Under the pieces are notes generated by a model, which searched no databases, was not told the DNA's origin, and saw only the letters and a program-made list of their open reading frames with translations. This document shows, one piece after another, positions 38,758 through 60,739 of a stretch of 64,000 nt of DNA. The first letter of the stretch is position 1; the number at the start of each line of letters is the position of its first letter. The translations under genes were made by a program, and so were the position numbers. The stretch is from an uncultured virus (IMG/VR IMGVR_UViG_3300042992_002627). Lineage: Duplodnaviria; Heunggongvirae; Uroviricota; Caudoviricetes. The stretch is from the IMG/VR virus record IMGVR_UViG_3300042992_002627; one strand, given 5' to 3'.

Positions 38758-39489
38758 ATGAAAACACAAATCCAAGAAACAAAAGATTACCACAAGTTCG
38801 CTTCCATCCTTGGCAACCGGAACTTAAACATGAATAAAATTGATAAAATTTGTACTGATGTTGCCGGTGGGTTTAACATGCTGCCATATTATCCAGTGAT
38901 CGTTTATCAGGAAAAAGAATTGTATAAAATAATCGACGGTCAACATCGCTTTGAGGTTTCTAAGCGAACAGAAAACCCGGTTTATTTTATCGTTTGCCAA
39001 AACATTTCCCTGAAGCAAATTGCCATTCTAAATTCAAGAGGTGAAAAATGGAAAGCTTCTGACTTTCTAAACTGCTATATCAAGCTAGGAATTGAAGATT
39101 ACAAAGATGTAAAATCACTTATGAATCAATACCAGGTTAATATCAAATTAGCGGTTGATTTACTTTACGCTTTTAAACATCATGGAGGAGCTCCAACATC
39201 TGAATTATTCCAGGATGGAAATTTTAGAACCAATCATCTTAAAGAGACAGTAGAATTGTTGGAATTGGTTAAATCAATTTTCTCAAGATATAAATTTTGT
39301 TTTGACCGCTATTTAGTTGGTGCAGTTTTAAAGCTTCAGCAAGTGGGCAAATGTGACTTTGAAGAATTGAAGCAAAAAATTAACCAATCGCCTATGATGA
39401 TGGACAAGCAAGGAGATTTGAAAGGCTATTTAAACAATATCGAACGGGTTTATAATTTTAAAAATTCTATTCGTAAAACTATTTTCTAA
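38758..39489 (+). CDS. ParB/Srx-like N-terminal domain protein
   Basis: PVIV...IIDGQHR motif. Confidence 0.65.
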   Translation: MKTQIQETKDYHKFASILGNRNLNMNKIDKICTDVAGGFNMLPYYPVIVYQEKELYKIIDGQHRFEVSKRTENPVYFIVCQNISLKQIAILNSRGEKWKASDFLNCYIKLGIEDYKDVKSLMNQYQVNIKLAVDLLYAFKHHGGAPTSELFQDGNFRTNHLKETVELLELVKSIFSRYKFCFDRYLVGAVLKLQQVGKCDFEELKQKINQSPMMMDKQGDLKGYLNNIERVYNFKNSIRKTIF

Positions 39490-39698
39490 TGAAATTCACA
39501 GCAACATACACAGGAACGGATGAGCCACTTTGGAAAAACGGCAAACCATACAAGCTCTTCTTGAACCGTAACTCAATGATGGTTTACCAAGCCGAAACAA
39601 CCATCGTAAAAACATACCGAAGTCTGCATGACTTTTTAACCGACTTTAATTTAATAGTCAATCACGAGTCCAACAATAAAAAGGTAAGTAATGGATAA
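39489..39698 (+). CDS. Hypothetical protein
   Basis: Coupled ORF. Confidence 0.5.
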   Translation: MKFTATYTGTDEPLWKNGKPYKLFLNRNSMMVYQAETTIVKTYRSLHDFLTDFNLIVNHESNNKKVSNG

Positions 39699-39930
39699 AA
39701 TAGAAGCACTACTAAACGAGGCAGCAAAACTATACCAAGAAACACATGGAGCCTATTTTGTTTTAACAGCTTCAAATGACGGAAAATTTTGGAAACTATC
39801 TATTCCTTCTATTCAAGGAACTTTCAAAGGCTCCGTACAAGATGTTTTGATTGATTATATCTATTACGTTGCAAACAACAGAGAATTAGCCGGGAAGAAT
39901 TTAAAAAGCAAAAAATACAAATTATTTTAA
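39691..39930 (+). CDS. Hypothetical protein (homologue of 61832..62071)
   Basis: LLNEAxKLYxETxGA motif shared with the phage B gene. Confidence 0.6.
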   Translation: MDKIEALLNEAAKLYQETHGAYFVLTASNDGKFWKLSIPSIQGTFKGSVQDVLIDYIYYVANNRELAGKNLKSKKYKLF

Positions 39931-39942
39931 TAAAAAATAACC

Positions 39943-40128
39943 ATGCCAAGACTCAATAAACAATACACATTAGAAGTCACAGTAGAGCAGTTCCTAGAGG
40001 CCTGCTCCTTGACAGAGCTGCAAGAGATAGATTTATTGCTAAATAAATTTATCGATAAGAAAAGGTATTTTTCTAAGGAAGAAACAATAGAGATCAAAAC
40101 AAAGCTAAACTTAACAGAGAAAAAATGA
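39943..40128 (+). CDS. Hypothetical protein
   Basis: Coupled ORF. Confidence 0.5.
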   Translation: MPRLNKQYTLEVTVEQFLEACSLTELQEIDLLLNKFIDKKRYFSKEETIEIKTKLNLTEKK

Positions 40129-40385
40129 AAGACCATCAAGAAACAAAAAAACCTCAAGACGACTGGAGGCTTGAAAAAATCGAACTAGAATTTAAATCTT
40201 ATGGAGAAAACAAAGGGAAGTATGAAGGGAGAATCAGATTTCAAAATGGCGAATTTGAAAGCTTTAGCTTCAAGATAAGGCCTGAAATGGCACAACCTTA
40301 CATTAGCATTATGAGCGAAGACATCGTTAAGTGTGCTGAATCTTTAGCTTCTCGCTTAATAGATTCTTTAGGACTACAAAAGTAA
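40125..40385 (+). CDS. Hypothetical protein
   Basis: Its stop codon TAA is part of the TAAC at the attC-like site. Confidence 0.5.
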   Translation: MKDHQETKKPQDDWRLEKIELEFKSYGENKGKYEGRIRFQNGEFESFSFKIRPEMAQPYISIMSEDIVKCAESLASRLIDSLGLQK

Positions 40386-40519
40386 CGTTTTGATTGGCGA
40401 TGGGCGGGCTTTTCAGCACAAAAGTTGGTTCGTAGAAATGAACTTTCGGCTATCACAAAACTGTCAAGCGGAGACGAAACCCCGCCTATTGCCAATTTGC
40501 TCGATTATATGCCGTTTTT
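40383..40519 (-). repeat. Solitary attC-like hairpin
   Basis: TAAC-gttttg-ATTGGCGATGGGCGGG...CCCGCCTATTGCCAAT; same architecture as the 57927-59490 sites. Confidence 0.6.
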
Positions 40520-40529
40520 CTATCTGTCG

Positions 40530-41612
40530 TCATATTCCGCTTTTAATTCTGTTGTCGTGTTTGCATAACATTTGGCAATTGTCTGCTGTTGTTTTACCGC
40601 CACTGTGCCAAGGTGTAATGTGATCGGCTTCCATTTCGTTTAGTTCAAATTCAACACCGCACTTTACACAAATTCCTTTTTGTCTTTCAAACGATTCACG
40701 TTTTTGTTTATCTGTAAATGCTCTGATACTTAAATATTTCTCGTTTCGGGTCAAAACGTATTCGTAAATACCTGATTTTTTTGTTACGTCTTCGTCTTGC
40801 ATTAAGGTTGTTATTTCTTCCTCTATTTTTTTGGCATCAAATTCTTTGTCTTTGAAGTTGTTGTATAAGATACCATAATTTACGCCTTTCATTTCACGGC
40901 GATATTTTGGAAAAACAACTTTTATCCAAGTCATTAAACTTGTAAAGTATAACCACAATTCGCTTGCATTTGGCTTGTGTTGGTTTTCTGCCATATACTG
41001 CTCAATATTGTCGTTACTTAACCAACTAATTGCTGTTTCTAAATAGTCTTGTCTGATTGCCGAACCGTTCATATAGTCGTTGCCAATATTATAAGCAGCA
41101 CAACCTGTTTTACTGAAATACTTTTTAGCTTCAGTTAGCCAAGTTCCTGTATAAATTGCGTTCCGTAATTCCTGCTGAGTTAGTTTTTCGCCTGCAATGT
41201 TTATGGTTTTGAACCAGTCCAATTTTTCTTTGTCATTGCCCTCACAAAAATAAACCATCAATTTATAATCTAAAATTTGTTCTTTCTCAACATTTGTAAG
41301 ATTATGAAAGTACATTGAGTTTAATGAAAAACTGCCTGTTACATATTCGCAAATACTTATTGTTCTTTGTTGTCCGTCTAAAACTTCGTAAGTATCATCT
41401 GCGTTTTTAACCCAGTACATTACGTTTAAAGGAAAGTTCTTTATAACGGTTTCAATTACGGCATCTCTTTGTTTGTCTTTGTAAACAAATTCACGTTGAT
41501 ATTTTGGGCGAATATTCAATTTACCACTAAAGCCAACAACTCCTTCTTCGTTGTCGTTAAAATAACCTTTTGATACTTCTCGTATTGAAATTTCTTTTAA
41601 TTCTATTTTCAT
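40530..41612 (-). CDS. DUF262 plus HNH endonuclease (GmrSD-like restriction protein)
   Basis: PKYQREFVY and VLDGQQR motifs; C-terminal CxxC...ADHITPW...N...C..HDN. Confidence 0.85.
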   Translation of the reverse strand: MKIELKEISIREVSKGYFNDNEEGVVGFSGKLNIRPKYQREFVYKDKQRDAVIETVIKNFPLNVMYWVKNADDTYEVLDGQQRTISICEYVTGSFSLNSMYFHNLTNVEKEQILDYKLMVYFCEGNDKEKLDWFKTINIAGEKLTQQELRNAIYTGTWLTEAKKYFSKTGCAAYNIGNDYMNGSAIRQDYLETAISWLSNDNIEQYMAENQHKPNASELWLYFTSLMTWIKVVFPKYRREMKGVNYGILYNNFKDKEFDAKKIEEEITTLMQDEDVTKKSGIYEYVLTRNEKYLSIRAFTDKQKRESFERQKGICVKCGVEFELNEMEADHITPWHSGGKTTADNCQMLCKHDNRIKSGI

Positions 41613-42710
41613 CTATTGGATTTTCTTGTTTTTTATCAAAATTCTTGCGTAGGGTGCAATTAAGAAATTGCTATTTTCACTTATGTAATATGTACCAATT
41701 GGTTTTGTTTGCGTTTCTATTGCTAAAACACAATTTATTGCATTACCATTTTTCAATACGCCATCTTTCATTACTTTTTGCGGATTTTTATAATCTTTAT
41801 TTGGTGAAAAATTATCACGGCTATTTCCTAAACCAATTATTTCAAATTGGTCGGGATTGTATTTGTCAATAAAAGTAATTGGCACTCCAATTACACCTTT
41901 ATAATCCATTGGAATTTCTTTTGTCTTATCAACATTTATTGCATCATAGTTGTCATACTTTGGATATTCAGTTTCATTTCCATAATATGTTTTATACAAA
42001 ATTATATCTTCGTGTCTTTTTTTCGTGTCAATATTCGTGTACCAAACAATTCCTGAAACTCTTATCATTCCTTCTTTATGGTCAGTATCAGAGGCATAGT
42101 CTTCATAATGTTTGTTTATAAAATGTGCCATATTTCTATTAAATCCATAGCCTAACCATACTTTATTGGCTTTTATTAGCTTGAAGATTTCTTTATACGT
42201 TATTGAATTTTGGTGTCCAATAATTATAAATTTTTTGTCGTATTCGATTAATTGGGCAACATATTCTCTAAAAAGTGAAAATGGTGGATTTGTTACAACT
42301 ATGTCGGCTTCTTTTAATAGTTCAATACATTCTTTGCTTCTAAAATCGCCATCGCCTTTTAATGTTTTAATTCCAATTTCTTCTGGATTTGGAATATTAT
42401 CTCCGTTCTTGTCGCCTGTATATTCTAAATAAATTGCTTGTTCAGATTTGTTTTCGCTGAACAAGTCCATATCTTGATTTTTATAACAAGTAGCAACAAG
42501 TTTTTTAAGTCCTAACTGCTCAAAATTGTATGAAAAATAATGGAAGAAATTACTAATTCTTGGGTCATCGCAATTACATAAAACAACTTTGTTTTTAAAA
42601 TGTGCTTTATAGTGTCTTAATTCCTTTTCAATGTCGGACAGTTGAGTATAAAATTCATCGTTTTTTTCAGTACTTGCTTTCTTTAATTTGTCGTTTGAAT
42701 TTTTAGCCAT
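41613..42710 (-). CDS. Adenine-specific DNA methyltransferase, EcoRI family
   Basis: DEFYT, CNCDDP, GDGDFRS and VTNPPFSLFRE motifs. Confidence 0.9.
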   Translation of the reverse strand: MAKNSNDKLKKASTEKNDEFYTQLSDIEKELRHYKAHFKNKVVLCNCDDPRISNFFHYFSYNFEQLGLKKLVATCYKNQDMDLFSENKSEQAIYLEYTGDKNGDNIPNPEEIGIKTLKGDGDFRSKECIELLKEADIVVTNPPFSLFREYVAQLIEYDKKFIIIGHQNSITYKEIFKLIKANKVWLGYGFNRNMAHFINKHYEDYASDTDHKEGMIRVSGIVWYTNIDTKKRHEDIILYKTYYGNETEYPKYDNYDAINVDKTKEIPMDYKGVIGVPITFIDKYNPDQFEIIGLGNSRDNFSPNKDYKNPQKVMKDGVLKNGNAINCVLAIETQTKPIGTYYISENSNFLIAPYARILIKNKKIQ

Positions 42711-42909
42711 TTTTTCAGTTTGTTAAGGTCTTAAAGTTACGTTTTTAATTTCTGTTTCTTGTTGGTTTCGGGTCGTCCTATGCACACGAGGCTCTATTAA
42801 GCATCCGTCCTTAACTAACAAAATTCCTCTTTATCCGCTACGATCAAAAGCTGTGGTTTTTCTGACGTGTTTTTTCCCCTACCCCCCATCATCGAAAAAA
42901 ACTAAAAAA

Positions 42910-43135
42910 AATTGTAATTTTGTAATATTTGATGCAATATAGCAAAAACCCTAGAAAAAAAGCGTACATTCTATTTGTAATTTTGTAATTGATATTACAA
43001 AAAAATTGTAATCTAAAATCTTCTAACAAAAATACAAAAAGGCAAATCGCCTAAATTACAAAAATCACTTTCATAAAAAACCCTTATTTTATTGGGTCTA
43101 ACGAGTGAAAAATAACAGAATTACAGAATTACAAA
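42910..43135. repeat. Convergent TTGTAAT / ATTACA iterons, putative replication origin of phage A
   Basis: Multiple TTGTAAT on the left and ATTACA(A/G) on the right, in a non-coding AT-rich gap. Confidence 0.5.
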
Positions 43136-43232
43136 AAAATAATGCCTTTTTAAGGTATTTAAAACTACTTTTAAGTAACAAAATATACTTATAAGTAAAT
43201 TTTTTTACTATCTTCGTGCAAACGTTTCTGTA

Positions 43233-43724
43233 ATGCAACTACTTGACAAAGTACGAACTAACATCAATGCCTGCGCTATTGAACTATCGTTTGATGGCGT
43301 TTCAAAAGCATCTGTAATTGAAGGATGGCAACCTTTTTATAATTCCATCATGGAAAATGCCGAATTTCACAAAGCCGGTGTTTCCATTTCATCCATCAAT
43401 TATGCACAGGAAAGTGTGACCAGTGCCGCCGGAACCTCTTATAAACAGAAAGTAGTTTTTCGTTTCCCGAATGGCGATGCCTATCGTGCAGATCGGATAG
43501 CACTCATGCAAAAAATAAAGTTTGTCAACATCAAACTTTCCGATGGTCGATTGCTCACCATTGGCCGGAACGACTTCAATCAGAATACAAAACCTATTAT
43601 AAAAACGACCGAGAATTCAAAAGCCTGTGAAGTAGAAATAGAATCACAATCTATTTTCCCTTCCGGATATACTCCAAGTTATGATCGTTTCGGTCTTCCG
43701 GTCTTCATCCCTTTATCTTTTTAG
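43233..43724 (+). CDS. Hypothetical phage protein
   Basis: 163-aa ORF upstream of the tail fibre gene. Confidence 0.6.
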   Translation: MQLLDKVRTNINACAIELSFDGVSKASVIEGWQPFYNSIMENAEFHKAGVSISSINYAQESVTSAAGTSYKQKVVFRFPNGDAYRADRIALMQKIKFVNIKLSDGRLLTIGRNDFNQNTKPIIKTTENSKACEVEIESQSIFPSGYTPSYDRFGLPVFIPLSF

Positions 43725-43726
43725 CT

Positions 43727-45409
43727 ATGCCAACAACAAATCCATATCCGTTAAACATTCCTGCAAAGGTAAATTCGCCGGAGCTTCTTGCATGGTTCCA
43801 GCAGTTCGGAATTGATAAATACCTATCTGCTGAAGAAATCAATAAAATGAGTGCAGCTCTGCAATTTTTATATGAAAATTTAGGAGGTGGAGCATTGAGT
43901 CAATCAGGCATCACCACCCTAGGCACAATAACCATAGTAGATGACGAAGTAAACTTTGAAGACTTTGCCTGGAAGATTGACGGCGTTGACTATGAACTAG
44001 ATGCTCCAATTACCCGCGTGTTACCTTTAGCTGCTGAAGGAATGTACCGAACTCACACAGCTTACTTGACCACAGACAATGACATTCTTATTGCAGAAGG
44101 ACCGGAAGATAGTGAAGTCACCACAGAACCATCTATACCAACCGGAACATTACGTCTTCGAGCTTTCAATGTATTTGGTGAAGTGATTACTGCTGGACCT
44201 GGAGAGAGTTTGCCGTATGATATCAATTTATTGGATGAATTATTATCGCTTCCGGAAGATCCTGATTATTTTTTAATAAACAAAGAAGGTGTTGATTATA
44301 GAATAAAAAGATATTTTTTGACATTCTTTGATAAATTGAGAATGAAAACAAATTCATCTTATGTGCCATCTTTAGTTTCTGGCTACACTGATTTCTATAT
44401 GCTAAACAATAGGTTGTGTGCATACTTCACATCATCACATATTCAGATTGAAGGTAATACTGAAGCTGGAAGTAGTAGTGTTTTGAAAATGCCATTTGCT
44501 GCCGGTACAGCTGAAATAAATAGACCAGTATCTAATATAACAACTAGTCTTACCCTAGCTGCAACTCATAATTCAAGAACAGTTAGAGTTTCACCTATTG
44601 CAGCAAGCCCTGTTGATATTACTATTCCAAACCCATTAAGTGGTGACTATCTTTTTAATATAGTAAACGAGAGTGATGTAGTTGTTAAATTAATTCCTTC
44701 AGGTTATTTGATAAATGGTGTTGCTGAACCTTTTATTGTATTAGAAAAAAATGTCAATTATTGGGTTAAACGTGTAGCGACCAATAACTGGATTTTGAGT
44801 CCTAAGTCTGGTGCAACAACAGTTCCTTCAGCAACAGATTCACTAGCCGGAATAATGAAATTGTATAACTCATTCGGCATAAACACCGATGGTTCAATCC
44901 GTCAAGATTTCTTTACATCAACAATTAATAAAATTGAAAACTTCTTCATCTCAAAACAAAACGGAACATTTGGAAGTCATACTGGTGACTTGCTGGAAAC
45001 TGTTTTAAGCTCTGACGATGTTGTTGGTGGTTTTTTTGTAGCTGGTGACACGATGCTTATTTTAATTTCAGGAGAAAAATCAGCAGCTGTGGCGAATGTT
45101 ACTTATAGAATAAGATTTGGAACCACCGGAACAACTTCAGATGAATTAATTGCTACTTATACCGGAAACAATCGAGGTTTAAATATGCAAAGAGTAAATA
45201 TTTCATTTTTAAGCGGGAATTTAGTTCGTGTTATCTCTGCAACAACATCATTAATATCTGATGTTTTAGGAACTAGTGCTGTGTTTTCAAATGTTTCATT
45301 GACTTATTCATCTGCATTTAAAATAACTATCACAGCTCAATTAGGTAATGCAACAGAAACTGCTTCTATTAGAACTTTAAGAGCTTCAAAAATTAAATCC
45401 ATAACATAA
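43727..45409 (+). CDS. Tail fibre / receptor-binding protein
   Basis: 560 aa, S/T/G-rich beta composition, VPSATDSLAGIMKLY linker typical of fibres. Confidence 0.7.
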   Translation: MPTTNPYPLNIPAKVNSPELLAWFQQFGIDKYLSAEEINKMSAALQFLYENLGGGALSQSGITTLGTITIVDDEVNFEDFAWKIDGVDYELDAPITRVLPLAAEGMYRTHTAYLTTDNDILIAEGPEDSEVTTEPSIPTGTLRLRAFNVFGEVITAGPGESLPYDINLLDELLSLPEDPDYFLINKEGVDYRIKRYFLTFFDKLRMKTNSSYVPSLVSGYTDFYMLNNRLCAYFTSSHIQIEGNTEAGSSSVLKMPFAAGTAEINRPVSNITTSLTLAATHNSRTVRVSPIAASPVDITIPNPLSGDYLFNIVNESDVVVKLIPSGYLINGVAEPFIVLEKNVNYWVKRVATNNWILSPKSGATTVPSATDSLAGIMKLYNSFGINTDGSIRQDFFTSTINKIENFFISKQNGTFGSHTGDLLETVLSSDDVVGGFFVAGDTMLILISGEKSAAVANVTYRIRFGTTGTTSDELIATYTGNNRGLNMQRVNISFLSGNLVRVISATTSLISDVLGTSAVFSNVSLTYSSAFKITITAQLGNATETASIRTLRASKIKSIT

Positions 45410-45546
45410 TTATGTATTACAAAACAGACGAATCAGGAAACTATTTAGGAATAAAATCAGAAACGAATGAGGGTTGGGAGTTTTTCTCTACAACACCAGT
45501 GCCAACTGATATTGCTAGAGTAAGAAATGAAAACGGAACTTGGGTT
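45182..45546 (+). repeat. Direct repeat copy 2
   Basis: Matches window 1-~365. Confidence 0.95.
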
Positions 45547-46005
45547 TCAGCAATTTCTAATGAAGAATTAATTATTGAATATACTAAACGTATTCAAAAT
45601 GCTTTCACTTATTTAAGAAGAAGAGCTTTAGCATCATCTATTAATAAACAAGGTGAATGGGAATATATCTATGAACAGGCCGAACAGTATAAATTAAAAT
45701 ATAAAGTTGCCAAAGGTGAAATTGTAAACACTTCTGTTGAAGCTATGATTGCTGACGAAGCAAATGATTTTGGTATTACAAGCGAAAATATGAATGTTTT
45801 GATAATTCAAATGTATGAAGCTGGTGAGTTAGCTTATAATCAATTCACAGCAATGATTGAAAGGGGTCGAACAAAAGCATTGACAATGCTTGAAACGGCT
45901 AATTTTGATAAAGCATTACAAATTATTTTAATAATGGAAACCGTGCCGGAAAAATTGACAATGGAACAAGCAGAAGTATTGACAATTCAAATGATTTCTA
46001 TTTAA
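45412..46005 (+). CDS. Tail-fibre-associated protein
   Basis: Shares its N-terminus with 231..965; unrelated helical C-terminus. Confidence 0.5.
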   Translation: MYYKTDESGNYLGIKSETNEGWEFFSTTPVPTDIARVRNENGTWVSAISNEELIIEYTKRIQNAFTYLRRRALASSINKQGEWEYIYEQAEQYKLKYKVAKGEIVNTSVEAMIADEANDFGITSENMNVLIIQMYEAGELAYNQFTAMIERGRTKALTMLETANFDKALQIILIMETVPEKLTMEQAEVLTIQMISI

Positions 46006-46427
46006 TGAGAAAAAACAAATTATATAGTGAACTGACAGAACTTGAAAAACAACTTGCTGATTCCTACATGAAAAGCGAATTGAAAAATTTAGATTTTAAG
46101 CATCCAATTCGCTTATTGTTTCATTATGCCTGGGAAGATTATAAAGCAGACAAGTTCACATTTGATGGAGCAACGTTCTCAAAAAAATGGCACACAGCAA
46201 CATCTTTTGAAATAGCAGCGTTAGTTCATGATTGGCGTAATTCGATGGGATTTGTAGGCTATGCAGTCGACAGGGAAATGTTTGACGTAATGATTACACT
46301 GAATTACGGACTTCCATATATTATTCAACGATATATTTTGACACGATTCACCTTTTTGAATATAATCAGACATCGAATAAAAGGAACATTTAAAGGAAGT
46401 AAACTCACTAATTTATATAAACTATGA
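46005..46427 (+). CDS. DUF1353-like phage protein
   Basis: FDGAT...AALVHD motif. Confidence 0.5.
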   Translation: MRKNKLYSELTELEKQLADSYMKSELKNLDFKHPIRLLFHYAWEDYKADKFTFDGATFSKKWHTATSFEIAALVHDWRNSMGFVGYAVDREMFDVMITLNYGLPYIIQRYILTRFTFLNIIRHRIKGTFKGSKLTNLYKL

Positions 46428-46804
46428 AAAAATTATTAGCAACATCGTACAAACACATTTTAATTACATCGGCATTATTTGCCTATATTGAAATGAAAAG
46501 CAATTTAAATGGATTGAGCCTTTCTGAAACGCCGTTTATCTTCCACATCTTAGTTTATATTATTTGTGGTGCTGTTTTAAACGCGGTTTTTGAATTTGCA
46601 ATGAAAGGAATGTTTAAGATTGAACCACAAATGGAAGATGTTATTGGTGGTGGAATTGGTGGATTTTTTGCACCTATAATAGCGATGCTGCCGGTTATTG
46701 CAGTTGAGATTTATGTTTTATTTAACTTGTTTTTTGTAATTGGATTTGCAGTGTATTTTATAATTATTAAACTTAGAAAAAATGAAAATCGTAGTGGCTT
46801 TTGA
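46424..46804 (+). CDS. Membrane protein
   Basis: Several TM segments. Confidence 0.55.
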   Translation: MKKLLATSYKHILITSALFAYIEMKSNLNGLSLSETPFIFHILVYIICGAVLNAVFEFAMKGMFKIEPQMEDVIGGGIGGFFAPIIAMLPVIAVEIYVLFNLFFVIGFAVYFIIIKLRKNENRSGF

Positions 46805-46925
46805 AAAAGAAGTTTCCGAAGCGGAACAAAAACTATTTGACAAGTTTGTTGTTGATAACAATGACCTTGCAAATGAAGTTGAAGGAATTGGTGGTGGAAT
46901 TAAAAACCCCAAAAAAGAGTAAACA

Positions 46926-47267
46926 ATGAAAGGCTTTCAAAAATATGTATATCTAATCCCAATCATACAAATAATCGCCACGTTTGCGGTTTCATTTGTT
47001 GATTTAACTGACAACCAATGGGTTTATTTGGGTAATTCCGTTGGCTATTCAATTTTAACCGGATTAGTATATTTAGCCTATTTTTGGAATCCTTATTTTA
47101 AGTTTTGTTGGTTTACTAAGATTGCAGCACTTGGATTATTGATAATGGCAATTTATAACTTCTTAGGAGCTTGTTTTGATTTTAAATTTTACTCCCTTTG
47201 GTTTGACAGGATTGTATTTGTGATAGTTTTAATATTAACTTTTTTAATGCCAAAATCAAATGATTAA
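46926..47267 (+). CDS. Membrane protein
   Basis: Four hydrophobic segments. Confidence 0.55.
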   Translation: MKGFQKYVYLIPIIQIIATFAVSFVDLTDNQWVYLGNSVGYSILTGLVYLAYFWNPYFKFCWFTKIAALGLLIMAIYNFLGACFDFKFYSLWFDRIVFVIVLILTFLMPKSND

Positions 47268-47772
47268 TAGATGTATGTCGTCAACTTTGTTTCTGAATTT
47301 TATTGATGCTTTTCAGTTATCAGCAGTTTTTGGAATGGTTTCTACTTTAATTTTTGATGAAGCATCATTGTGGTTTTTGGCAAATCAAAGATATGTGAAC
47401 ATCGCTTTGGGTTGTATATTAATAGATCATGCTTTGGGAAGTATTGTTCATTCATCGGCTTATAGAAATGATTTTTGCTTTAAAAAAAATATCACCGGCT
47501 TTGCAGTTAAAATATCAATGGTTGTGGCTTTTGCATTTTTAATGGAGGGATTGGCACATGTAACTATTGAAGATGATATGATTTATCGTTACACAAAAAT
47601 GACTGGTAGAATATTGGTAATTCTTTATCCGGCCATTTCAGCAATGAAAAATATAAAAATCATTACCAATGGAAGGTTCCCGCCGGATGCTCTTGTTGGT
47701 AAACTTGAAAATTTTACAAAAGATCTAGATTTAGATAAACTTAAAAACGGAAATAATGCCGAAAGCAATTAA
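47260..47772 (+). CDS. Putative holin
   Basis: TM segments; overlaps the endolysin start. Confidence 0.55.
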   Translation: MINRCMSSTLFLNFIDAFQLSAVFGMVSTLIFDEASLWFLANQRYVNIALGCILIDHALGSIVHSSAYRNDFCFKKNITGFAVKISMVVAFAFLMEGLAHVTIEDDMIYRYTKMTGRILVILYPAISAMKNIKIITNGRFPPDALVGKLENFTKDLDLDKLKNGNNAESN

Positions 47773-48271
47773 CACGCGAAACATCGTTATTCACTGTTCC
47801 GCTGGATTTGGGGATAAAAAAAGTATTGAAGCGTTTTGGAAATCAAAAGGATGGCAGTCACCAGGTTATCATCGATTGGTTGATTTGAACGGAATTGTTT
47901 ATGAACTTGCTGATTTCAGTAAGATTGTGAATGGTGTTTTAAATCATAATGAAAAAACAATTAACATTTGCTACATTGGTGGTATTGAAAAAGTAGCGGG
48001 TAAATTCAAAGGTAAAGACACTCGAACTGCAAAACAAAAAACAGCTATTGAATATTGTATTGAAGAAGCAAAAAAATGGCTTAAAGCAAACGGTAAAGAT
48101 ATTACTAAAGATTTAGGCGTTGTGGGCCATCGTGACTTTAGCAAAGACAGCAACGGTAATGGCGTGATTGAATCATGGGAGCGAATTAAAGAATGTCCTT
48201 CTTTTGATGCTATTGCTGAATACAGCTCGAAATATGCGAGTAAAGATAGAATTGGTAAAATTCCAAGTTAA
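47756..48271 (+). CDS. Endolysin, N-acetylmuramoyl-L-alanine amidase (Amidase_2, T7-lysozyme-like)
   Basis: VIHCSA, GYH, ICYIGG, GHRD and KECPSFD motifs. Confidence 0.9.
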   Translation: MPKAINTRNIVIHCSAGFGDKKSIEAFWKSKGWQSPGYHRLVDLNGIVYELADFSKIVNGVLNHNEKTINICYIGGIEKVAGKFKGKDTRTAKQKTAIEYCIEEAKKWLKANGKDITKDLGVVGHRDFSKDSNGNGVIESWERIKECPSFDAIAEYSSKYASKDRIGKIPS

Positions 48272-48453
48272 TTATGGAAACAAACGAATTTCAGGAGTTT
48301 TTCTACTCCTATAAAAAACCTTTTTTCAATTTTATAATTGCTTTGGTTTTAGGTTCAATTTTTACTTATTTAATTTTAAAATGATAAACATAGCAATATG
48401 TTTCCCTCATTAATAAAGGAAACAATTTATAAAACACTTTAATTCATTGAGTT

Positions 48454-57170: not shown

Positions 57171-57617
57171 ATGAATGAAATGAAAGTTGTTTCAATTGGA
57201 AAAGGTTCTGACAATTTATTGATTGTTCCGAAGGCTCCTGTTTATTTGAATGATGAAGCTAAAAAACATTACAAAGAAATGGGAAACATTTTAGCAAAAA
57301 ACAACCGAATGAAAGAAATCTTTTTGCCGGCTTTAATTATTTATGCTGAATCTATGGCCCAGTTTGAATTTGCGATTTCTGAAATTAGAAGGAAAAATAA
57401 AGAAAAACAAGGTAGTGGTTATGTGCAAAAATTTGCAACCGGAGCACAAAACATTTCTGTGGAAGTAAGCTTGAAAAAATCTGCCATTGATGATTTATTA
57501 AAATGCTTTAAAATTTTTGGTATGGATCCAAAATCAGAAAAAGAATTAAAAGACATTACCGACCCAAATCAAGGCAACTTGTTTGAAGAAATGTTGAAAA
57601 TGAAAAAGGGCCAATAG
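57171..57617 (+). CDS. terS: Terminase small subunit, P27 family
   Basis: KAPVYLNDEAKKHY...FGMDPKS. Confidence 0.75.
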   Translation: MNEMKVVSIGKGSDNLLIVPKAPVYLNDEAKKHYKEMGNILAKNNRMKEIFLPALIIYAESMAQFEFAISEIRRKNKEKQGSGYVQKFATGAQNISVEVSLKKSAIDDLLKCFKIFGMDPKSEKELKDITDPNQGNLFEEMLKMKKGQ

Positions 57618-57644
57618 GCAACATTACCGAAAAACTAAAGCTTT

Positions 57645-57926
57645 TTGAATACAAAAAAAATATCAGCAGCAATGTTGATCTGGATTGCTTTTAAATTTTT
57701 TAAAATGAAAATCGGACAAAAAATGGTATTTGATTTAGAAGCCTGGATAGGTGAAGAAATGATTATGGAAGAACATACAGCTGCAATTTTAGACATCTGT
57801 ATTGATCCACTTGGAAGGCATGAATCAAAATGCATTGTGGTTGTCAATTCTGAAAAATATGGAATTCCTTTTTCACAAATCAAACAAGTATTGCCGGCAA
57901 ATGGGGAACAGTTAGTTCTTTTATAA
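57645..57926 (+). CDS. Hypothetical protein
   Basis: Its stop codon abuts the first attC-like site; true start uncertain. Confidence 0.4.
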   Translation: MNTKKISAAMLIWIAFKFFKMKIGQKMVFDLEAWIGEEMIMEEHTAAILDICIDPLGRHESKCIVVVNSEKYGIPFSQIKQVLPANGEQLVLL

Positions 57927-58067
57927 TTGCCAACGGCATCTACTTTGCGAAGTGGCGGATTTGGAACACCACAGCTTCAATTTAGCACTACCGTTGATTA
58001 GAATTACAAGGGTTAAAATTAGCACTGCACCCGCCATTTTGCAAAGCAAGTGTTAGCAAATCGTTTT
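57927..58067 (-). repeat. attC-like site 1
   Basis: GCCAAC...CTTTGCGAAGTGGCGG (57943-58) / CCGCCATTTTGCAAAG (58031-46)...GTTAGC. Confidence 0.75.
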
Positions 58068-58071
58068 CATT

Positions 58072-58338
58072 ATGTTTACCAATATAAAAATAGAAGAAGT
58101 TTTAATTTTTGCAAAGCAAGGGATTCAAGGATTTACCACTGATGATGGTGATATTGTTGAACCTAAAACAAAAGAGGAAGTGCTAGAAGATATAGAATTG
58201 ATTGATGATTTGTTGTCAATTATGAAATCAAAAATGCTCTTAAATAAGAAAAAAGGGTTAAAAGCCGTAATAGATGGACGATTAGCGTTAGCAGTTGCCC
58301 CCGATTCAGTTAGAATAGGTGGTACGAATCATTTTTAA
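58072..58338 (+). CDS. Cassette 1 hypothetical protein
   Basis: Fills the space between GTTAGCAAA and TTTGCCAAC. Confidence 0.6.
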   Translation: MFTNIKIEEVLIFAKQGIQGFTTDDGDIVEPKTKEEVLEDIELIDDLLSIMKSKMLLNKKKGLKAVIDGRLALAVAPDSVRIGGTNHF

Positions 58339-58408
58339 AATGTTTGCCAACGGTTCTCGGCTATATTTAGGCTGGGATTATGAAAACGAAACTTTAAATT
58401 AAAACAAA

Positions 58409-58738
58409 ATGAAAGTAGAAATTACAAAAATTATGCAAAGTACCGAAATACTAAACGAAATTAAAAATCAATTAGAACAATTAGAGCATAAAGGCTATGA
58501 TAAAAATAGTTTTAAAAGCGGTTACCTTTTAGGATATGCCAAAGCGTTGCAATTGCAACAACCTGATGTTATAAAATCGGTTTGCGGTTCGTTGCCGATT
58601 TCAAAGGTGGTTTTCTTTGAGTTGAAAAAAGGGAAATACCTTGCAAGTAATGGGGTTGAAGTAACAACGGAATTTATACTAAAAAACGAACACGCTATAT
58701 TTCACGATAATGGTTATGTGATTGTCGAAAGGCAATGA
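58409..58738 (+). CDS. Cassette 2 hypothetical protein (reads through a junction)
   Basis: The ORF spans the GTT junction at 58568-58596. Confidence 0.55.
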   Translation: MKVEITKIMQSTEILNEIKNQLEQLEHKGYDKNSFKSGYLLGYAKALQLQQPDVIKSVCGSLPISKVVFFELKKGKYLASNGVEVTTEFILKNEHAIFHDNGYVIVERQ

Positions 58739-58876
58739 CCGCTAACGTTGAGCATATACGAAGGCAGGGCTTTTAAATACCAAAGCTCGGTTACTTCCGA
58801 AAGCTCAATAGAAATACAAAAGTTGAAAGTTTGCACGTCTGCCCTGCTTTTGTATATGCATTGTTGGCAGTAGTGC
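58731..58876 (-). repeat. attC-like site 3
   Basis: GCTAAC...GCATATACGAAGGCAGGGC (58752-70) / GCCCTGCTTTTGTATATGC (58841-59)...GTTGGC. Confidence 0.8.
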
Positions 58877-58906
58877 TTTTTATTTACAAACAAAAATTAA
58901 ACAAAT

Positions 58907-59326
58907 ATGAAAATAGTAAAAATATTATTAGACGATGGAACAAGTAGAGAAGTAGGAGAAATTAAACCTTTATCTCACTTTGAAGAAAAATACCCTGAAA
59001 ATAATAAATGGTATTGGCAAAGGTGTTACGAAAGACAATTCAATAATTTTGAAGATGATATTATTGAATTTCTAAATGAAAGTAATGTTGAAGAATACGC
59101 AAAAGACCACTTAAATTTAGTTGAAGAAGACGATGTGGAAGAAAAAGATATTTCTGATTTTACTGATGCTGAAATTTTAGAAGAAATGAAAGATAGAAAA
59201 TTAAATAAAGGAGGGAATATAATTACTTCTAGTTTTATTGAAAGATTTGAAAACATTGTAAAAGCAGAAAACATTATTTTATTAGACAATTTACTTTCTG
59301 AATTAGAAACTAAACTCAATCTTTAG
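58907..59326 (+). CDS. Cassette 3 acidic hypothetical protein
   Basis: Lies between GTTGGCAGTAGTGC and GCATTACTGCCAAC. Confidence 0.6.
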   Translation: MKIVKILLDDGTSREVGEIKPLSHFEEKYPENNKWYWQRCYERQFNNFEDDIIEFLNESNVEEYAKDHLNLVEEDDVEEKDISDFTDAEILEEMKDRKLNKGGNIITSSFIERFENIVKAENIILLDNLLSELETKLNL

Positions 59327-59337
59327 CGACTCCAACG

Positions 59338-59490
59338 GCATTACTGCCAACGTTCCGCAGCTTGTGGTCAGTTGCGGATTTAAGCACCGAGCCACAAAAA
59401 AATAAACAATAACTTTAAATTTAAAAACAATGAATAAAAATAATTCCAAAGACCCGCAATTGCCACAAACTGCTGTTAGCAAATCGGCTT
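59338..59490 (-). repeat. attC-like site 4
   Basis: GCCAAC...GCAGCTTGTGGTCAGTTGCGG (59357-77) / CCGCAATTGCCACAAACTGC (59454-73)...GTTAGC. Confidence 0.8.
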
Positions 59491-59870
59491 TAAAATTTGA
59501 ATACGGATTTAATTCTGTGAATGGAATTGTAAAAAAGAGGTACTATTTAAGCGAAATACCGTTTATGCACGATAAATGCGATGTTTGGCAAATCTTACCA
59601 GTTGTTTATGTTAGGCAATTTACTGGATTTACAGACAAAAAAGAAGTTGAAATTTATCAAGGCGATATTTGTAAATACCATAAAAATACAAGTAAATGGT
59701 TAGTATCATATCATTTTGAAGTAAGGTTTAGAAATGGTGCTTTTTATGCTTATTGGGAACGTGAAATGATGGGAAAATTAGAGCAACATTGGGATTTACT
59801 TTCTCAAAAAGATATGCGAAATATTAGAGTGGTTTCAGATATTTTTCAATCAGCGCAAACTACGTCATAA
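59430..59870 (+). CDS. Cassette 4 YopX-family protein
   Basis: QFTGFTDKKEVEIYQGDI...V.F..GAF motif. Confidence 0.7.
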   Translation: MNKNNSKDPQLPQTAVSKSALKFEYGFNSVNGIVKKRYYLSEIPFMHDKCDVWQILPVVYVRQFTGFTDKKEVEIYQGDICKYHKNTSKWLVSYHFEVRFRNGAFYAYWEREMMGKLEQHWDLLSQKDMRNIRVVSDIFQSAQTTS

Positions 59871-59935
59871 GCTGTTTGCTAACTACTATATGTAAAAACC
59901 ATTTATAAACCTTAACAAAATAAACACTACACGCC

Positions 59936-60739
59936 ATGAACATCGGAAAGTACCTCGAAATGTATTCCGACGATTTAAAGTTAAAAAACTATTCGTCAAA
60001 CACAATTGAAAATTACAAATCACAAGTGGGATTATTTTTAAAACACTTTGATAAAGTAGCAACCAAGCCATCTGAGATATCAGAAAAACAAATAAAAGAA
60101 TGGTTGCTGATGGCCAACTCAATTAACGGCAGAAAACACAGAATATCTGCCGTGAAATTGTTTTACAAACTAACAGGAAAACAGCCTTTGAAGTTCCGTC
60201 ACATTGAATATCCGCGGTCCGAAAAGAAGTTACCACAAATAATTGACAAAACCTATCTATTGGAATCAATCAATAAAATACAAAACAAAAAACACAAAGC
60301 CATCATTGCTTTGGCATACTCAACCGGAATGCGAGTTTCCGAAGTATGTAATTTGTTGATTGCCGATATCGACAGCAAACGAATGATTATTACCATCCGA
60401 CAATCAAAAGGGAAAAAAGACCGCATTGTGGCATTGTCATCAAAAATACTTGAAATACTTCGCGAGTACTTCAAAGAATACAAGCCAAAAACATTTTTAT
60501 TCAACGGTCAATTTGGTGATCAGTATTCACACACGAGCTGCAACCAAATAGTAAAACAATATTTAGGAAAAGAATTTCACTTTCATCAGCTCCGGCACTC
60601 AAATGCGACAGCACTTTTAGAAGCGGGAACCGATTTGCGAATCATACAAAAACACCTGGGCCACGCGTCTAGTAAAACAACAGAAATCTACACCCACGTC
60701 AGCACCAATTTATTACAATCAATGGCATTACCAATTTAA
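59936..60739 (+). CDS. Integron-integrase-like tyrosine recombinase (short; SAM-like N-domain, no Arm domain)
   Basis: YSxNTxxxY N-terminus; TGMRVSE, KGKKDR, HQLRHSNATALLEAGTDLR and LGH..SKTTEIYTHV, with all catalytic residues present. Confidence 0.85.
   Translation: MNIGKYLEMYSDDLKLKNYSSNTIENYKSQVGLFLKHFDKVATKPSEISEKQIKEWLLMANSINGRKHRISAVKLFYKLTGKQPLKFRHIEYPRSEKKLPQIIDKTYLLESINKIQNKKHKAIIALAYSTGMRVSEVCNLLIADIDSKRMIITIRQSKGKKDRIVALSSKILEILREYFKEYKPKTFLFNGQFGDQYSHTSCNQIVKQYLGKEFHFHQLRHSNATALLEAGTDLRIIQKHLGHASSKTTEIYTHVSTNLLQSMALPI

Follow-up and report, generated by a model that had tools for sequence, protein, structure and literature searches.

A restriction-modification gene pair in a temperate Bacteroidota phage with the features of a chromosomal hairpin cassette

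How does a pair of restriction-modification genes, closed by a hairpin of the kind found in cassette arrays, come to lie between the last early gene and the late genes of a phage? We addressed this question in a stretch of 64,000 nucleotides (the window; IMG/VR record IMGVR_UViG_3300042992_002627), whose positions 1-45211 correspond at 100% identity to positions 74-45284 of the viral record G001, here named phage A. This record of 45,284 bp has 103-bp direct terminal repeats and is 100% complete according to CheckV; phage A is a temperate Bacteroidota phage. Past 45211 the window continues as different phage DNA, named phage B, which encodes lysis and replication functions, an integrase, and a small and a large terminase; its hairpin-cassette array spans 57.6-59.9 kb, and a tyrosine recombinase of 267 aa is encoded at 59936-60739. 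The initial annotation of the window had proposed that a host-derived defence cassette was inserted into phage A in trans, at a secondary GTT site, and then fixed. We consider it likely that the gene pair and its hairpin are a cassette of the chromosomal type, which entered by recombinase exchange at the crossover point of the hairpin and subsequently decayed. The host-type cassette and a near junction at G/TT (here and below, the slash marks the crossover) agree with the earlier proposal, but the far junction is not G/TT, which leaves a simple secondary GTT target site unproven.

A gene pair and hairpin with sister cassettes in chromosomal arrays

The gene pair is a full-length, adjacent Type II restriction-modification system, with activity predicted from its protein families. 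Methyltransferase and nuclease abut with zero gap in an operon-like arrangement and are called by PADLOC as MTase_II (E 2.5e-123, full length) and REase_II (E 7.4e-141, residues 1-358 on profile positions 1-370 of 372); together with the matches to PF13651 and to GmrSD_N/DUF262 plus HNH, these calls agree with the first reading of the two minus-strand genes as a methyltransferase and a DUF262-HNH protein. Bacteria lysogenic for phage A would acquire Type II restriction-modification from it. The leader of the pair, which is common to its sister cassettes (Table 1), includes a probable promoter of the Bacteroidota type (TAnnTTTG -7 box).

The hairpin with 16-bp arms that had been noticed at 40393-40496 was confirmed. 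On the plus strand its two arms (40393-40408 and 40481-40496) enclose a 72-nt loop and are joined by 14 Watson-Crick pairs and 2 of the G:T kind; the minus strand reads ...AAAAACGGCATATAATCGAGC...CAAAACGTTACTT. A generic hairpin scan of the whole window returned an identical pair string, WWWWWWUWWUWWWWWW (six Watson-Crick pairs, a G:T pair, two Watson-Crick pairs, a G:T pair and six Watson-Crick pairs), and an identical 72-nt loop for the phage B hairpin at 57943-58046, and the same motif for the phage B hairpin at 58752-58859. We built a covariance model, R1, from 10 aligned hairpins, two from phage B and eight from viral contigs with relatives of the phage B recombinase, leaving phage A out. 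The model matched the phage A hairpin on the plus strand with E 2.8e-7, a score surpassed in the window only by the two sites of phage B on which it had been trained, and this was its sole match in the complete phage A record. In all 10 aligned sites AAC and GTT are invariant, as in the RYYYAAC and GTTRRRY boxes of classical attC sites. When 45 chromosomal sites were aligned to R1, 94.3% of the cells paired, against 68% for shuffles and 39-47% for slid partners, and 18 of the 20 stem pairs carried compensatory changes: the hairpin family is a conserved structure. One G:T pair of the stem recurred in 45/45 chromosomal hairpins and a G:T pair of the box helix in 43/45, and such pairs could mark the recombining strand, instead of or beside extrahelical bases. 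Rfam gave no match for the hairpin at gathering thresholds. Folded singly, the sequence did not stand out as RNA (z -1.3) and did so only modestly as DNA (z -2.1); the case for the site is built on comparison with other sites and not on folding energy. The opposite orientation of the hairpin, suggested by a AACGGCAT motif that the site shares with those of phage B, was also considered and was dropped in favour of the R1 alignment and the sister cassettes.

Those sister cassettes were reached through the nuclease. A protein scan over one genome per species confirmed 536 relatives, the best 80 of which were examined (loci L107-L186) together with 12 viral loci. The 80 genome loci reach 91% identity and bear the labels Flavobacterium, Saprospiraceae and other Bacteroidota, and also candidate phyla radiation bacteria, archaea, Clostridia and proteobacteria. 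Across these taxa nuclease identity is 65-91%, and the hairpin companion is almost restricted to Bacteroidota, which shows that the restriction-modification module also moves by other means. Over all of these loci R1 gave 38 matches at E <= 0.001, every one (38/38) on the strand opposite to the nuclease, as in phage A, and the 12 viral loci gave zero matches anywhere at E <= 1. The hairpin starts 10-22 nt past the nuclease gene in 11 of the 80 genome loci (L109, L111, L112, L116, L117, L119, L120, L135, L137, L140 and L172); ten carry a Bacteroidota label, and L172 is a 2.4-kb contig of a metagenome-assembled genome labelled Limnohabitans. Arrays were seen at L119, L120, L137 and L140, so that the gene pair does occur where the initial annotation had suggested looking for it, within hairpin-cassette arrays of Bacteroidota chromosomes. 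On the L119 contig (66.9 kb, labelled Flavobacterium sp.), 20 hairpins lie between positions 646 and 28533 (28 kb), with a 347-aa tyrosine recombinase ~2 kb beyond the last of them. The cassette measures 2361 nt in this array, compared to ~2417 nt in phage A.

Orientation distinguishes chromosomal cassettes from those of phage arrays. Taking the longest open reading frame (ORF) between successive hairpins and comparing it with the foldable strand of the hairpin, we found the ORFs antisense in 16/18 cassettes of the Flavobacterium chromosomal array (1 sense, 1 ambiguous), whereas those of 12 viral arrays were sense in 55/58 cassettes (1 antisense, 2 ambiguous). The phage A cassette is antisense and has the chromosomal polarity, in line with the conventional cassette orientation described for it at the outset. 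Such a polarity rule would make it easy to tell where a stray cassette came from. With hairpin orientation as the reference, both chromosomal contigs examined (L199 and L201) and the viral loci have the recombinase on the same side of the array; since the relation is kept to the recombinase and not to transcription, the hairpin fold would act as DNA and not as an mRNA element.

The recombinases of the two settings are related. Among IMG/VR sequences, 229 relatives of the 267-aa phage B enzyme were confirmed and the best 80 fetched, and in these 80 viral loci 160/160 R1 matches at E <= 0.001 lie on the recombinase strand. The 347-aa chromosomal recombinase is 41-47% identical to that of phage B, and both match XerA best (NCBIfam NF040815, 222 bits; PDB 4a8e and 5hxy). 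On the integron integrase profile TIGR02249 the chromosomal enzyme scores 203 bits, in two pieces, against a cut-off of 265. Opposite residues 186-245 of IntI4 it has only 18 residues, ~42 being missing there, and for this reason we regard these recombinases as lacking the IntI-specific insertion (the I2 helix region). Phage A has no cognate array recombinase: as had been supposed, the only tyrosine recombinase of its complete record is the 414-aa integrase, which is 29% identical to the array recombinase. On the L119 contig, two ORFs of beta-lactamase families stand between the last detected hairpin and the recombinase (L199 7537-10696), one of class A subclass A2 (NF012099, 331 bits, cut-off 320) and the other a PF00144 serine hydrolase.

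Two junctions and a decayed site

The near junction falls on the family crossover to the base. By BLAST, phage A is homologous to the sister loci L111, L112, L117 and L172 from the nuclease gene into the hairpin, as far as 40383-40384 (40398 for L117), and in the alignment of all five the sequence is common to ...CAAAACG and then T or TT, after which all differ. In the arrays of L140, L119, L118, L116 and L107 the next cassette begins exactly at ...ACG/TT. In phage A the G of this junction pairs with C40386, and the TT with A40385-A40384, which belong to the stop codon of the resident 86-aa gene. The breakpoint had been predicted as a G/TT on this TAA, which stands, but at 40386/40387, where the alignment instead gives 40385/40386. 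TAA is part of the family box TAAC, which makes any TAA stop that precedes a C a natural target where insertion does no harm, and the same property may explain why the phage B array also starts at a stop codon. Here the crossover coincides with the end of the last early gene and would have left all phage genes intact.

The phage A hairpin site has decayed. The outer box retains TAACG at 40383-40387, and the far box reads GATTA at 40503-40507, with a 1-nt shift, where the family has TGTTA; the partner that the outer box would pair with is now phage sequence, and the site does not have two intact boxes. In the inner box, TATAAC of L111 has become TATAATCG (L111 ACGGCATATAAC-AGC aligns with phage A ACGGCATATAATCGAGC), so that the inverse core, described as degenerate from the letters of phage A, is indeed broken. 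The stem is ~3 bp shorter than the stems of sister sites, and the R1 score is 42.9 bits compared to 63-80 bits for the four closest sister sites. In all probability the phage A cassette no longer moves and is passed on as two genes of the phage.

The far junction is less sharply placed. The leader of the sister cassettes is conserved down to ...AGGACGACC and more loosely to GCCTC, which carries cassette homology to ~42792. Beyond it, a 4.3-kb metagenome contig (L207) matches window 42809-44202 at 93% identity, with different genes ahead of this stretch, and a contig from sequencing run X6 matches phage A from 42811 and is unlike it before that point. Our best guess for the junction is 42802/42803, minus strand ATGC/TTAATAGAGCCTC, which resembles the TTATGCCTC start of sister cassettes. 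A GTTAGTT at 42813-19 had been put forward as a candidate far end, but it is not the end of the cassette, because TTAACTAAC is backbone in the cassette-less L207 (from 42809) and in the X6 contig (from 42811). A far end at 42818/42819 was likewise rejected, the sequence being phage backbone in L207. In L207 the stretch ahead of the shared backbone contains a gene of 92 aa, followed by a terminator and by ...CC TTAACTAACAAAATTCC, and the X6 relative has sequence in common with phage A up to 40163. The initial annotation had named a hairpin in relatives without the insert as the sign of a plain terminator; neither of these two pair-less relatives has a hairpin at this backbone point, the X6 contig as far as its loose end shows.

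The early region of L207 contains a three-hairpin array of its own (126-210, 540-670 and 864-1005) with sense-strand ORFs, ending near 1262 in a hairpin-less box, CCGCTAAC/TAG; the viral contig L012 begins at an equivalent TAAC/TAG.

The locus recurs in sequencing data. Two runs from different studies (2020 and 2024) contained 0.97-0.98 of the sampled words of 39300-43800, the 2020 run being possibly the source sample, and in three further lake runs low-depth contigs with zero differences form a tiling of cassette and flanks, in which one contig spans 42490-42845. The summed depth of the hairpin was 260-560 in all four mapped runs, with many different flanks, and this type of site is therefore abundant in those waters.

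Table 1. Coordinates of the cassette, its junctions and the flanking phage A features in the window
Feature	Position	Strand	Details
Tyrosine integrase of phage A, 414 aa	30873-32117	-	29% identical to the array recombinase
Resident phage gene, 86 aa, no family match	40125..40385	+	TAA stop 40383-40385
attC-like hairpin site	40378..40515	+ (foldable, G:T strand)	42.9 bits with model R1
Near junction	40385..40386		Minus strand ...CAAAACG/TTACTT
Type II restriction endonuclease candidate, GmrSD_N/DUF262 + HNH, 360 aa, intact	40530-41612	-	PF03235, PF01844
Adenine DNA methyltransferase, EcoRI-family, 365 aa, intact	41613-42710	-	PF13651 E 2e-136, profile 2-345 of 345
Cassette leader common to sister cassettes	42711..42792	-	Reads ...AGGACGACC...ACAGAAATTAAAA.CGTAA.TTT..GAC.TTAAC...ATG
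Far-junction zone	42793..42809		Leader homology to ~42792; L207 backbone from 42809
Phage backbone before late genes	42809..43232	+	Contains TTAACTAAC at 42811-42819; L207 homology

Route of entry and competing explanations

We propose that the transferred unit would extend from 40386 to ~42802 (~2.4 kb) and comprise a leader with its own promoter, the methyltransferase, the nuclease and the attC-like site. It would stem from a bacterial chromosomal array of an integron-like hairpin system of Bacteroidota, a chromosomal origin being suggested because both the gene-to-hairpin orientation and the closest relatives are chromosomal. Entry into the phage A lineage would have been by recombinase-mediated exchange at G/TT (TAA/C on the other strand), with the enzyme supplied in trans from the host or from a co-resident phage, there being no such gene in phage A. 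Afterwards the site decayed, leaving a mutated inner box, a shortened stem and an outer box of phage sequence. Both insertion in trans and later fixation are reasonable inferences.

Several observations weigh against this account. At the best guess the far junction is C/TT instead of G/TT, with a positional uncertainty of 17 nt, and there is only a loose match between the beginning of the cassette and the complement of the cassette's own inner box. A collinear relative with an empty site was found neither in the viral, metagenome and phage collections nor in four sequencing runs. Among viral contigs, the 163-aa and 86-aa flank proteins retrieved only phage A itself and L012, which is not collinear upstream; the 86-aa protein had no match among metagenome contigs; a 20-nt backbone pattern occurred at 4 loci, of which only L207 is related, with different early genes; and the phage collection gave only distant matches. 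In the four mapped runs no joint across the insert was seen, and run X6 gave no cover of the two genes of the pair, an absence that proves nothing. Because the early genes of L207 and X6 differ from those of phage A, the left edge of the insert is set by cassette homology alone, and because the array in L207 lies ~600 nt upstream of the same backbone point, the phage A lineage may once have had array sites itself. The direction of transfer, from host to phage, is suggested by the orientation of the cassette and the abundance of its relatives. Finally, the eight viral training hairpins of R1 were chosen by their G:T motif, which biases the motif counts toward G:T.

The same far junction, which is neither G/TT nor placeable to the base, would be expected if a single array cassette had been picked up by illegitimate or short-homology recombination, for instance during prophage excision or by replication slippage at the hairpin, with no site-specific recombinase acting on the phage. 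The early regions of these phages are mosaic, those of L012, L207 and the X6 relative all differing, which also suits such a pickup. We nevertheless judge it unlikely, as the near junction matches the family crossover to the base and the captured piece is one cassette unit, close in length to its counterpart in L119.

Alternatively, ancestors of phage A could have possessed both an array and a small recombinase, as do phage B and the 229 viral contigs, and the cassette would be all that is left of it; entry would then have been hairpin against hairpin, with the remaining array and the recombinase lost later. The three hairpins and terminal box in the early region of L207, whose late region is so close to that of phage A, point this way, as does the resemblance of the TAAC at the stop codon to the hairpin-less terminal boxes of arrays. 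We hold this history to be more doubtful still: the chromosomal orientation is found in 1/58 of phage-array cassettes, the complete genome contains no second hairpin or recombinase remnant, and no hairpin lies upstream of the 86-aa gene.

It is very improbable that the hairpin serves as a plain terminator, or as an RNA element, where two genes converge, and that the pair is an ordinary phage moron. A short terminator-like stem with a T-rich tail does lie within the loop (minus strand 40488-40465), and attC sites are said to terminate weakly (PMC9892861), yet the 16-bp stem, 72-nt loop and absence of a T run do not follow the intrinsic-terminator pattern, which only that small internal stem fits. 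The hairpin also shows homology to the sites of arrays, accompanies the gene pair in chromosomes, has no Rfam match and is missing from the backbone point in L207 and, to its loose end, in the X6 contig, and its G:T strand is antisense to chromosomal and sense to phage-array genes, so that the fold is not tied to mRNA.

Recombinase exchange of a chromosomal cassette at the G/TT crossover thus remains our preferred reading, and it would have consequences beyond this phage. To our knowledge, the route of a defence system from cassette to phage has been shown in integron biology only in laboratory assays of IntI1, in attC x attG reactions. The locus would be a natural example, legible at the level of the base, of how a defence system can pass from a bacterial array into a temperate phage and stay there, and would link the chromosomal and phage forms of a hairpin-cassette system found widely among Bacteroidota and the phages that infect them. 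A wider and decidedly more tentative proposal, plausible in our view though short of probable, is that recombinases without the I2 insertion move hairpin cassettes both within Bacteroidota arrays and off-platform into bare TAAC/GTTA sequences of co-resident prophages. Host and phage arrays, despite their opposite gene polarity on one and the same hairpin, would in that case share a single cassette economy, of which this locus would preserve a fossil: a complete restriction-modification system transferred from host to phage.

Relation to known cassette systems and neighboring features

The system shares much with integrons: a unit of one or two genes ending in an imperfect hairpin with TAAC/GTTA boxes, arrays beside a tyrosine recombinase, a G/TT boundary, a foldable strand antisense to chromosomal cassette genes, and defence cargo including restriction-modification. 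In sedentary chromosomal integrons, restriction-modification and other defence cassettes are reported (10.1101/2024.07.02.601686; PMC8618304). The two differ in their recombinases and in their strand asymmetry. IntI of the classical integron has an insertion, whereas the recombinases here are nearest to archaeal XerA and the insertion region is missing; strand asymmetry here is marked by an invariant G:T pair, and the chromosomal recombinase is co-directional with the cassettes, unlike in the integron system. The I2 helix has been called an innovation for single-strand recombination (PMC7790495), and the recombinases of the present system are without this domain held to be the key innovation for recombining single-strand hairpins. 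Integrons are listed for Bacteroidota (PMC8618304), and IntegronFinder 2.0 reports only one complete Bacteroidetes integron, in Salinibacter ruber (10.1101/2022.02.28.482270). We found no description of an Xer-type hairpin-array system in the literature, a search that did not cover the supplements of bioRxiv preprints.

Insertion away from an array has a parallel in the work of Loot et al. (10.1101/2022.09.11.507474), in which IntI1 inserts cassettes at GWT sites in the genomes of E. coli and V. cholerae. The likeness of this attC x attG insertion to the phage A locus is a single cassette at a non-att site with a minimal motif, for which those authors suggest that domestication can follow; the phage A cassette differs as a natural phage product of another recombinase family, with only one junction cleanly at the crossover. 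Clusters of attC sites lacking an integrase (CALINs) have been described in phages, including the Flavobacteriaceae phage Polaribacter P12002L, beside methyltransferase genes (Qi et al. 2023, PMC9892861). What sets phage A apart is its single decayed site, the completeness of its restriction-modification pair and the sister cassettes mapped in chromosomes. In P12002L itself (L208) we found one R1 match at 39114-39250 (44.4 bits) between gp55 and gp56, which we do not equate with either published site, attC1 or attC2. This P12002L hairpin has a methyltransferase gene nearby and shares its strand with the genes, which is the phage polarity.

The array of phage B belongs to the same hairpin family as the phage A site, but its polarity is of the phage-array type, with genes on the foldable strand, and the 267-aa recombinase follows the array; phage A has the opposite polarity and no such enzyme. 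Within this array (57617-59935), sites lie at 57926-58063, 58738-58874 and 59343-59486, with a terminal box at ~59876-59885. Its downstream boxes complement the upstream box of the next site, for example GTTGGCAGT after 58738-58874 and ACTGCCAAC before 59343-59486, and this complementarity is the logic of circular cassettes. The loop of the site at 59343-59486 contains the start of the ORF at 59430-59870, and 58338-58408 resembles a site remnant.

The passage from phage A to phage B is composite (window 45109-48300): after 45211 similarity to the start of G001 is 94%, then 73%, and divergence follows. The two phages may have been joined in assembly at this shared stretch, and their physical linkage is uncertain for that reason. 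Upstream of the phage A late genes, window 42918-43135 contains repeats of the TTGTAATTTTGTAAT-type motif in direct and inverted copies, which may be a regulatory or packaging region.

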